The notes under the pieces are model-generated. The model had not been told where the DNA came from. It did no database searches and saw only the letters and a list, made by a program, of their open reading frames with translations. Source: Eubacteriales bacterium (GTDB taxonomy: Bacteria; Bacillota; Clostridia; Christensenellales; CAG-314). From it: 64,000 bases of DNA. The DNA is taken from contig DAOTGG010000002.1 in assembly GCA_035446985.1 (NCBI GenBank), forward strand, positions 1,925 to 65,924, given 5' to 3'. Shown here in pieces: positions 6,285 to 6,591 of this stretch; position 1 is the first letter of the stretch, and each line of letters opens with the position of its first letter. The position numbers were made by a program, and so were the translations under genes.

Positions 6285-6324
6285 TTCAAATAAAAAAGCC
6301 CCGAAGTTTTTATTTTTCGAGGCA
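6285..6324 (-). terminator. Intrinsic terminator forming the expression platform of riboswitch copy 1
   Basis: Minus-strand RNA CCUCGAAAAAUAAAAACUUCGGGG forms a hairpin and is followed by CUUUUUUAUUU. It sits between aptamer 1 and the RBS of 5354-6256. Confidence 0.7.
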
Positions 6325-6402
6325 TCTGGCTGTCATATCATTTTACTGATTTAGACCCTGTAGTTTTGCGTCGCCGGCTTTCGCACGGTTTTGCCTTTCA
6401 CT
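6325..6402 (-). promoter_or_regulatory. c-di-GMP-I (GEMM-I) riboswitch aptamer, copy 1 (gene-proximal)
   Basis: Minus-strand RNA GAAAGGCAAAACCGUGCGAAAGCCGGCGACGCAAAACUACAGGGUCUAAAUCAGUAAAAUGAUAUGACAGCC contains the GEMM-I hallmarks: GCAAA(A)CC, a GAAA tetraloop hairpin, GACGCAAA, and GGnCUAA followed by a second hairpin. Compare the V. cholerae Vc2 core GGGCAAACC...GAAAG...GGGACGCAAAGCC...GGCCUAAACC. Confidence 0.8.
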
Positions 6403-6420
6403 TTTTATCTTTTGTTTGTA

Positions 6421-6463
6421 AATAAAAAAGCAAATAAATTTTACTTACGTAAATTTCATTTGC
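6421..6463 (-). terminator. Intrinsic terminator forming the expression platform of riboswitch copy 2
   Basis: Minus-strand RNA GCAAAUGAAAUUUACGUAAGUAAAAUUUAUUUGC forms a 15-bp stem with one mismatch and is followed by UUUUUUAUUU. Confidence 0.7.
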
Positions 6464-6464
6464 G

Positions 6465-6545
6465 GGAACCGGCTGTCATATCGAAAAACGACTTAGACCC
6501 ATTTGGCTTTGCGTCGCGGCGTTTCCGCCGTTTTGCTTTTCTCTA
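6465..6545 (-). promoter_or_regulatory. c-di-GMP-I (GEMM-I) riboswitch aptamer, copy 2 (promoter-proximal)
   Basis: Minus-strand RNA AAAGCAAAACGGCGGAAACGCCGCGACGCAAAGCCAAAUGGGUCUAAGUCGUUUUUCGAUAUGACAGCC has the same conserved blocks as copy 1 and is an even closer match to the GACGCAAAGCC...GGGnCUAA consensus. Confidence 0.85.
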
Positions 6546-6562
6546 TTTAATTTACCAATATC

Positions 6563-6591
6563 ATTTTAGCCTTAGCAACATTTTTTGTCAA
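6563..6591 (-). promoter_or_regulatory. Sigma-A-type promoter for the riboswitch/TasA-like operon
   Basis: On the minus strand: TTGACA (6586-6591), a 17-nt spacer, then TAAAAT (6563-6568). This predicts a ~300-nt leader carrying both aptamers. Confidence 0.6.

Follow-up and report, generated by a model that had tools for sequence, protein, structure and literature searches.

We analysed a 5' leader in a 64-kb window of Eubacteriales bacterium contig DAOTGG010000002.1 (the window being the whole stretch of DNA under study, 64,000 nucleotides, in whose numbering all coordinates are given, as were those of an earlier note made from the letters alone), where two complete c-di-GMP-I riboswitch units (GEMM-I type 1; c-di-GMP, cyclic diguanosine monophosphate) stand in tandem ahead of an operon that encodes secreted proteins and a SipW-like signal peptidase. 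Read along the minus strand from 6591 to 6254, the leader runs from a promoter through aptamer 1, terminator 1 (T1), aptamer 2 and terminator 2 (T2) to a Shine-Dalgarno sequence and an ATG, as follows:

6591-6586 and 6568-6563, minus: sigma-70-type promoter, TTGACA and TAAAAT with a 17-nt spacer, 11/12 matches in the promoter scan
6547-6461, minus: aptamer 1, c-di-GMP-I (GEMM-I type 1), RF01051 at 69.2 bits, E 1.8e-11, model positions 1-87 of 87
6420-6463, minus: terminator 1, arms 6463-6449 and 6444-6430, hairpin then U6AUUU
6405-6318, minus: aptamer 2, c-di-GMP-I (GEMM-I type 1), RF01051 at 66.1 bits, E 1e-10, model positions 1-87 of 87
6288-6323, minus: terminator 2, arms 6323-6316 and 6305-6298, hairpin then U6AUUU
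6254-6273, minus: AAGGAGG as Shine-Dalgarno (6273-6267), then the gene 1 ATG (6256-6254), from the sequence and the open reading frame (ORF) list

Scanning the whole window with Rfam at the gathering threshold recovered both aptamers, each exceeding the curated RF01051 gathering score of 35 by ~30 bits. A permissive Rfam scan of 1800-8700 revealed that c-di-GMP-I beats the related families of clan CL00126 for both aptamers, with no further Rfam match in that interval at E<=1. The earlier note had assigned the pair to GEMM-I from blocks shared by two minus-strand segments, and all of these blocks (GCAAAAC, a GAAA-capped hairpin, GACGCAAA(G/A)C, GGGUCUAA and AUAUGACAGCC) were indeed found in both; the covariance-model search that it had proposed over these segments returned two minus-strand RF01051 matches above threshold (the 69.2 and 66.1 bits listed above). 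In type 1 aptamers of the c-di-GMP-I class, ACGCAAA links a hairpin that carries a GNRA tetraloop to a second one that holds the tetraloop receptor, and both aptamers show type 1 features, namely a GAAA tetraloop on P2, GACGCAAA, and the tetraloop-receptor halves UCUAAG/UAUGA in P3, with a single bulged U in P2 of aptamer 2. As a sequence-level prediction, the presence of two complete c-di-GMP-I riboswitch units in tandem is confirmed.

To place individual nucleotides of the two aptamers, we used positions G11/A38/C81 of Bc1, the description of Bc4 and a direct reading of the Rfam alignment. Mapped from Bc4, the equivalent of Vc2 C92 falls at model position 83, with P1 from position 85, consistent with G11/A38/C81 of Bc1. 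In the Rfam alignment, aptamer 2 carries all three equivalents of Vc2 G20, A47 and C92 (G, A and C), and aptamer 1 has the A47 and C92 equivalents together with an A at model position 11, the G20 equivalent (window 6537). A convincing Watson-Crick P1 for aptamer 1 was not found over several registers of the 5' leader against the post-C92 sequence. Weak candidate pairings do occur (GGUAAAUU/AAUUUAC at -3.7 kcal/mol and UAAAU/AUUUA), and we make no claim of a P1 from them, as they are weak and only partly conserved.

Both aptamers are followed by a hairpin and U-tract where the earlier note had placed them, and their stability was assessed by folding against 200 dinucleotide shuffles. T1 folds at -13.1 kcal/mol (z -6.2) and T2 at -11.2 kcal/mol (z -3.6), with 0/200 shuffles as good in either case. 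The T1 stem is AU-rich and spans 15 positions, GCAAAUGAAAUUUAC / GUAAAAUUUAUUUGC, with one mismatch, a GUAA loop and then UUUUUUAUUU; its 5' arm begins at model position 85 of the aptamer, two nucleotides past the C92 equivalent and directly after CCC. T2 has a GC-rich stem, GCCUCGAA / UUCGGGGC, with a 10-nt loop and again UUUUUUAUUU, and its 5' arm GCCUCGAA corresponds to aptamer model positions 82-89, that is, the conserved GCC (with the C92 equivalent) plus the P1 3' strand. Neither hairpin was picked up by a simple terminator scanner, for which the few G-C pairs and single mismatch of T1 and the 10-nt loop of T2 are plausible reasons. Each aptamer has an A-rich 5' flank (UAAAUAGAGAA at 6537-6549 for aptamer 1 and AGAUAAAAAG at 6408-6417 for aptamer 2) that is complementary, with G.U pairs, to the U-tract and AUUU of its own terminator (6420-6429 and 6288-6297, respectively). 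This complementarity was not used as a regulatory element because it cannot act before the termination decision, and it may reflect AT-richness.

Between the two units, neither an ORF nor a promoter-like site was seen on the minus strand in the ORF list or the promoter scan, and both units would share a single transcript. The leader has two complete units of the same class before one ORF, which is what marks a tandem with multiple expression platforms. The TTGACA-17-TAAAAT promoter that the earlier note had read upstream of the pair is present as well. Its 11/12 match is alone not above chance, given four promoter-like sites in the scan against 4.3 expected from shuffles, and support for it comes instead from conservation, since both hexamers are kept in relative L007 despite its diverged flanks (and likewise in relative L009, where the leader alignment also diverges upstream of them). 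From this promoter, transcription would start near 6556 on the minus strand.

Several metagenome contigs encode the gene 1 protein in an unchanged gene order, and it has relatives at 90% and 74% identity. Contigs of relatives (L009, L007/L008, L012 and L050) have two RF01051 matches each at the corresponding positions, and the tandem layout is present in L001, L009, L007, L012 and L050; the pair, both terminators and the promoter are kept in relatives whose downstream protein is 74-90% identical. Leader alignment with L007 revealed compensatory changes in P2 of aptamer 1 (C-G to U-A and A.C to A-U), and the distal P3 hairpin of aptamer 2 is rebuilt there from different base pairs. The T1 stem is kept in L007 with a differing loop (folding at -11.1 kcal/mol), and the T2 stem is identical, again with a differing loop. 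Applying the Rfam structure to 11 GEMM-I aptamers of this operon family, including copies from homologous operons in other Bacillota, left 97.7% of cells paired with double-sided changes in 10 of the 20 pairs, a level that 0/500 shuffles reached, and controls with a slid structure were 24-39% paired. Covariation for the two expression platforms stays thin because a metagenome scan for further in-clade leaders added L050 alone, a locus equivalent to L007.

How the terminators overlap the aptamers bears on the direction of switching. In ON switches of the c-di-GMP-I class (pilM, PMC9262584; the validated Bc3-5, PMC4759541), the terminator and the aptamer in its ligand-bound form exclude each other, and the Bc4 terminator draws in the cytosine that pairs with the ligand, the P1 3' strand (four nucleotides, two positions beyond that cytosine) and part of P3 (PMC4759541). 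In the Cd1 OFF switch, aptamer and terminator coexist and an antiterminator competes with the terminator (PMC9262584). For unit 2, the terminator and the bound aptamer cannot coexist because the T2 5' arm is made of model positions 82-89, including the C92 equivalent. Such overlap of the terminator with GCC was also seen in GEMM-I copies of homologous operons (L022, L040, L042, L045 and L039), where the arm starts at positions 80-82 or takes the P3 3' strand. We predict with good confidence that unit 2 is an ON switch, with c-di-GMP raising expression. T1 overlaps three model positions of aptamer 1, in the presumed P1 region, and not the C92 equivalent, and mutual exclusion is partial for unit 1.

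Comparing each terminator with its competitors, the best alternative partner of the T1 5' arm reaches -3.7 kcal/mol versus -10.9 kcal/mol for the terminator, and that of the T2 5' arm -6.6 to -7.3 versus -11.5 kcal/mol, with T1 and T2 both present in all low-energy folds of the leader. The default state is thus expected to be 'off', as the terminators outcompete their alternative partners. No competitive antiterminator for OFF logic was found for either unit. A Cd1-like OFF design would be excluded for unit 1 because T1 is present in every low-energy fold against a best competitor of ~-3.5 kcal/mol, which would leave an ON switch or a constitutive block, and we prefer the former because a constitutive terminator behind a conserved promoter makes little sense alongside a maintained aptamer. 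Unit 1 is tentatively read as an ON switch. Where the earlier note had held that on and off could not be decided by eye, the architecture favours ON, a firm prediction in the case of unit 2 and a tentative one in that of unit 1.

The A in aptamer 1 bears in turn on the ligand. In tested RNAs, A at the G20 position makes c-di-GMP affinity fall from pM to tens of nM and admits cyclic GMP-AMP (cGAMP): G20A renders Vc2 bispecific (c-di-GMP 53 nM and cGAMP 120 nM, versus pM for the wild type), and Cbe 1-2, a clostridial A-type aptamer that is also bispecific, has affinities of 30 nM for c-di-GMP and 463 nM for cGAMP (PMC6140456). Variants that respond to cGAMP commonly have an A here (PMC9481103). 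Among relatives of the leader, L009 repeats the A-then-G order, and L007 has A in both aptamers of a near-identical leader. Two distant homologous operons carry one riboswitch per secreted-protein gene, an A-type ahead of gene 1 and a G-type ahead of gene 2 (3645-3729 and 5551-5636 of L022; 3651-3735 and 5627-5710 of L045). The window itself has a GGDEF cyclase gene 2 kb upstream of the leader, on the opposite strand:

8582-10543, plus: diguanylate cyclase, dCache-PAS-GGDEF, canonical Asp in NDTFGHLLGDE, GGDEF motif intact

Hypr GGDEF enzymes, which make cGAMP, have Ser where canonical diguanylate cyclases have Asp. A second GGDEF gene was not found in the 64-kb window, the sole one having the canonical Asp and not the Hypr Ser, and evidence of cGAMP synthesis was not found within the window either. 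The neighbouring cyclase is likely to supply c-di-GMP locally. Because L007 has A in both aptamers and the only cyclase in the window is canonical, c-di-GMP is favoured as the ligand of both units. By analogy with the tested RNAs, aptamer 1 is probably the weaker c-di-GMP binder, and it may be either a lower-affinity c-di-GMP aptamer or a bispecific one that takes c-di-GMP as well as cGAMP. A GGDEF gene also adjoins the riboswitch-bearing operon in L022; synteny with GGDEF was not taken as a general feature of the homologous operons, being seen in the window clade and L022 alone.

The operon downstream of the leader, its gene 1-gene 2 spacer and the gene that follows it are:

5354-6256, minus: gene 1, 300-aa secreted protein, signal peptide ending GSLAVYTT, N-terminal domain of an uncharacterised family
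5245-5353, minus: gene 1-gene 2 spacer of 109 nt, apparent decayed third GEMM-I copy by comparison with L052/L051
4735-5244, minus: gene 2, 169-aa secreted protein of the same family as gene 1, signal peptide ending GTLAVYS
4209-4703, minus: SipW-like (archaeal/ER-type) signal peptidase I, 164 aa, TIGR02228 at 77.3 bits against a cutoff of 51.85
3344-4204, minus: ABC-ATPase-like protein, 286 aa, weak matches, Walker A GKS/T not recognisable by eye, conserved in L011 and L022
1927-3417, minus: multi-pass membrane protein of up to 496 aa, last operon gene, SipW-like C-terminal domain (SipW model E 4.5e-7, residues 313-482)
983-1798, minus: bacterial Ku (non-homologous end-joining), directly downstream of the operon

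The gene 1 and gene 2 products have their N-terminal domain in common, as well as a signal peptide whose end reads G(S/T)LAVY(T/S). The C-terminal domain of the gene 1 product has no Pfam match; its homologues usually bear a CBM_2 at that end. A profile search gathered ~100 homologues of the secreted domain, typically of ~176 aa, or of ~320 aa with a C-terminal cellulose-binding CBM_2. The AlphaFold model of the gene 2 product is a beta-sandwich after a disordered N-terminal extension (pLDDT 81), for which Foldseek gave no PDB match at E<=0.001; in a PDB profile search the best match, at E 0.015, was an S-layer protein, neither TasA nor BsaA. No TasA/camelysin (Peptidase_M73) or BsaA match to the secreted proteins appeared in Pfam or NCBIfam even at E<=5, and with no such match in the Pfam/NCBIfam, PDB profile and Foldseek searches, TasA, camelysin or BsaA identity was rejected. 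The 164-aa peptidase scores 94 bits on the Bacillus SipW equivalog model, under its cutoff of 190. The final two genes of the operon seem to encode degenerate enzymes, and the SipW-like domain of the membrane protein reads, by eye, S-x-T-M-x-P where the active peptidase has S-x-S-M-x-P. The operon probably builds a surface or matrix structure of a sessile, high-c-di-GMP state, a role argued by analogy only, because the secreted proteins show no detectable similarity to TasA, BsaA or solved structures.

Searching with the membrane protein located homologous loci, 38 in all, in Desulfosporosinus, Anaerobacterium, Lutispora, Christensenellaceae and other Bacillota. GEMM-I was sought in two of four batches of these genome loci by Rfam, and in the rest by an nhmmer profile that recovered every Rfam match of the first batches; about eight of the loci have it. 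Where homologous operons have two GEMM-I copies, these are separate, before gene 1 and before gene 2. The copies at 5557-5642 of L025 and ~5695-5777 of L043 have no U-tract terminator and show UGCAA/UUGCA alternatives beside a GGGAGG ribosome-binding site, which suggests that these two act translationally rather than transcriptionally.

An intact aptamer directly before gene 2 was found in the in-clade relatives L052/L051, flanked by a clear P1 (AAUAGAGA/UCUCUAUU). Compared with it, the gene 1-gene 2 spacer of the window keeps, in order, AUAGAGAAAAG, GGCGCAAAA, GGUACGGCUAA, AAAUAUUACAUA, GCCGAC and CUUUCUCUA, is missing the hairpin of P2 as well as the P3 3' half, and has no Rfam match at E<=1 over 5245-5353. 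The spacer appears to be the relic of a decayed GEMM-I riboswitch. Given that it shares its block order with the intact L052/L051 aptamer, the lineage would combine the tandem ahead of gene 1 with a relic ahead of gene 2. In the place of the P1 3' strand UCUCUAUU of L052, unit 1 of the leader has UUUUUAUU, a resemblance that may be homology or AT-richness alone.

To interpret the leader as a whole, we propose that one RNA starting near 6556 on the minus strand would carry two independent GEMM-I type 1 riboswitches in series. By default, polymerase would stop at T1, and polymerase escaping T1 would stop at T2. At high c-di-GMP, supplied for example by the adjacent diguanylate cyclase, the bound aptamer would hold nucleotides of the terminator 5' arm (in unit 2, the GCC with the ligand-pairing cytosine plus the short P1 3' strand; in unit 1, the P1 region right after the ligand-pairing cytosine), whereupon the terminator would fail to form and transcription would proceed. 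The output would be the product of two read-through probabilities, predicting a tighter off state and a steeper, more digital dose response than a single switch would give. The triple tandem Bc3-5 was shown experimentally to work as ON switches in series, responding more digitally than one unit does (PMC4759541). We consider this serial ON pair driving a secretion operon the likely account overall. Several observations weigh against it: T1 leaves out the C92 equivalent and starts two nucleotides later, and, as no convincing P1 was found, a ligand block of T1 is conjectural; the G20 position of aptamer 1 is occupied by A; the secreted proteins are without detectable similarity to TasA, BsaA or any solved structure; and ~30 of the 38 homologous genome loci are without any GEMM-I.

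The layout of T1 could also be read as mixed logic, in which unit 2 is ON while T1 is either a ligand-promoted OFF element, yielding a band-pass response, or a ligand-independent attenuator that lowers output. Since T1 begins directly beside the binding pocket and does not take up the C92 equivalent, aptamer and terminator could coexist at the level of secondary structure, as in the Cd1 OFF layout, and aptamer 1 is without a clear P1. Yet OFF control needs a ligand-free antiterminator, and the best T1 competitor stands at -3.3 to -3.7 kcal/mol against ~-11 to -13 kcal/mol, with T1 in every low-energy structure; a constitutive strong terminator after a conserved promoter is hard to rationalise when the aptamer is under purifying selection with compensatory changes. 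We regard mixed logic as unlikely. Far less credible still, to the point that we give it hardly any weight, is that one aptamer is a decaying, non-functional duplicate and a single unit regulates. The spacer relic offers a precedent for GEMM-I decay in the lineage, but that relic gives no Rfam match at E<=1, while both aptamers of the leader reach 66-69 bits across the whole model with their A47 and C92 equivalents in place, and relatives with as little as 74% protein identity still have the two, with compensatory substitutions.

A different reading concerns the ligand, with the leader as a two-ligand or two-threshold gate in which aptamer 1 senses 3',3'-cGAMP or much higher c-di-GMP and aptamer 2 senses low c-di-GMP; if true, the operon needs two signals or a high threshold. 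The A-then-G order in the Rfam alignment, its recurrence in L009 and the A-type gene 1/G-type gene 2 arrangement of the distant L022 and L045 speak for such a gate, as do the bispecificity of Vc2 G20A and the A of cGAMP-responsive variants (PMC6140456, PMC9481103). Against this stand the A in both aptamers of L007, which suggests that the G/A state is not critical here, the preference of the tested clostridial A-type Cbe 1-2 for c-di-GMP over cGAMP (PMC6140456), the Asp at the selectivity position of the sole cyclase in the window, a canonical GGDEF, and the fact that within the clan both aptamers score best with the c-di-GMP-I model. We think such a gate improbable. Extended to evolution, it would make the leader a deliberately heterotypic device, in which an A-type aptamer gates first and a high-affinity G-type second, integrating two cyclic dinucleotides or two thresholds, and in which an ancient A/G pairing of the operon family (as in L022 and L045) was later fused into the tandem here while the gene-2 copy decayed; this extension is equally doubtful. 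We retain the serial ON pair responding to c-di-GMP as the preferred reading.

No tandem riboswitch class is more numerous than c-di-GMP-I, for which 347 doublets and 12 triplets have been reported (Sherlock et al. 2022, PMC9481103), so the arrangement is already well known and the leader adds one example. It resembles the catalogued doublets in class and in belonging to the 'multiple expression platforms, pseudo-cooperative' category (PMC9481103), here in an uncultured Clostridia metagenome-assembled genome. Bc3-5, in the cspABCDE leader of Bacillus thuringiensis, likewise has several GEMM-I type 1 aptamer-plus-terminator units in one Firmicute surface-protein 5' untranslated region, and there the cytosine equivalent to C92 and the P1 3' strand belong to the terminator 5' arm, giving ON control (PMC4759541), a layout that unit 2 shares. 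In contrast to Bc3-5, the leader has two units and not three, these are less alike to each other, T1 is a long AU-rich stem outside the ligand-pairing C, and one unit has A at the G20 position (the guanine at position 11 was mutated in the Bc3-5 study); the downstream genes here encode SipW-dependent secreted proteins, whereas the Bc3-5 operon encodes cell-wall-anchored cell-surface proteins.

The Geobacter tandem GEMM-Ib riboswitches for cGAMP, for example upstream of omcAHG (PMC6456294), are also tandem ON switches with terminators, and they and Cbe 1-2 (PMC6140456) have A at the G20 position, as does aptamer 1. Unlike in Geobacter, the A-type is confined here to one of two aptamers, in a Clostridia host with a canonical GGDEF next door. 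As for the operon, the SipW-dependent matrix-fibre systems tapA-sipW-tasA of B. subtilis and sipW-bsaA of C. perfringens (PMC7395162) share with it a SipW-type peptidase beside small secreted beta-rich proteins with a distinctive signal peptide. The likeness is one of organisation only, with no sequence or fold match of the secreted proteins, and the operon here has extra ABC-like and SipW-fused membrane proteins; it has a riboswitch where a two-component system was reported for the bsa operon (PMC7395162).

As an RNA, the leader serves chiefly annotation and offers a natural test case with dissimilar units (A-type and G-type) and terminators that differ strongly. It tells more about the genes, tying c-di-GMP to an uncharacterised Bacillota operon of fairly wide occurrence that combines a SipW-like peptidase with beta-sandwich proteins often fused to CBM_2, a tie that suggests a surface or matrix structure of sessile cells. 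Set beside relatives with one switch per gene, the relic makes a small worked example of tandem origin and redundant-copy decay. The window Rfam scan also returned a THF (tetrahydrofolate) riboswitch, RF01831, at 36901-36996 on the minus strand (75.3 bits) and a tRNA gene at 59595-59667 on the plus strand (60.1 bits).

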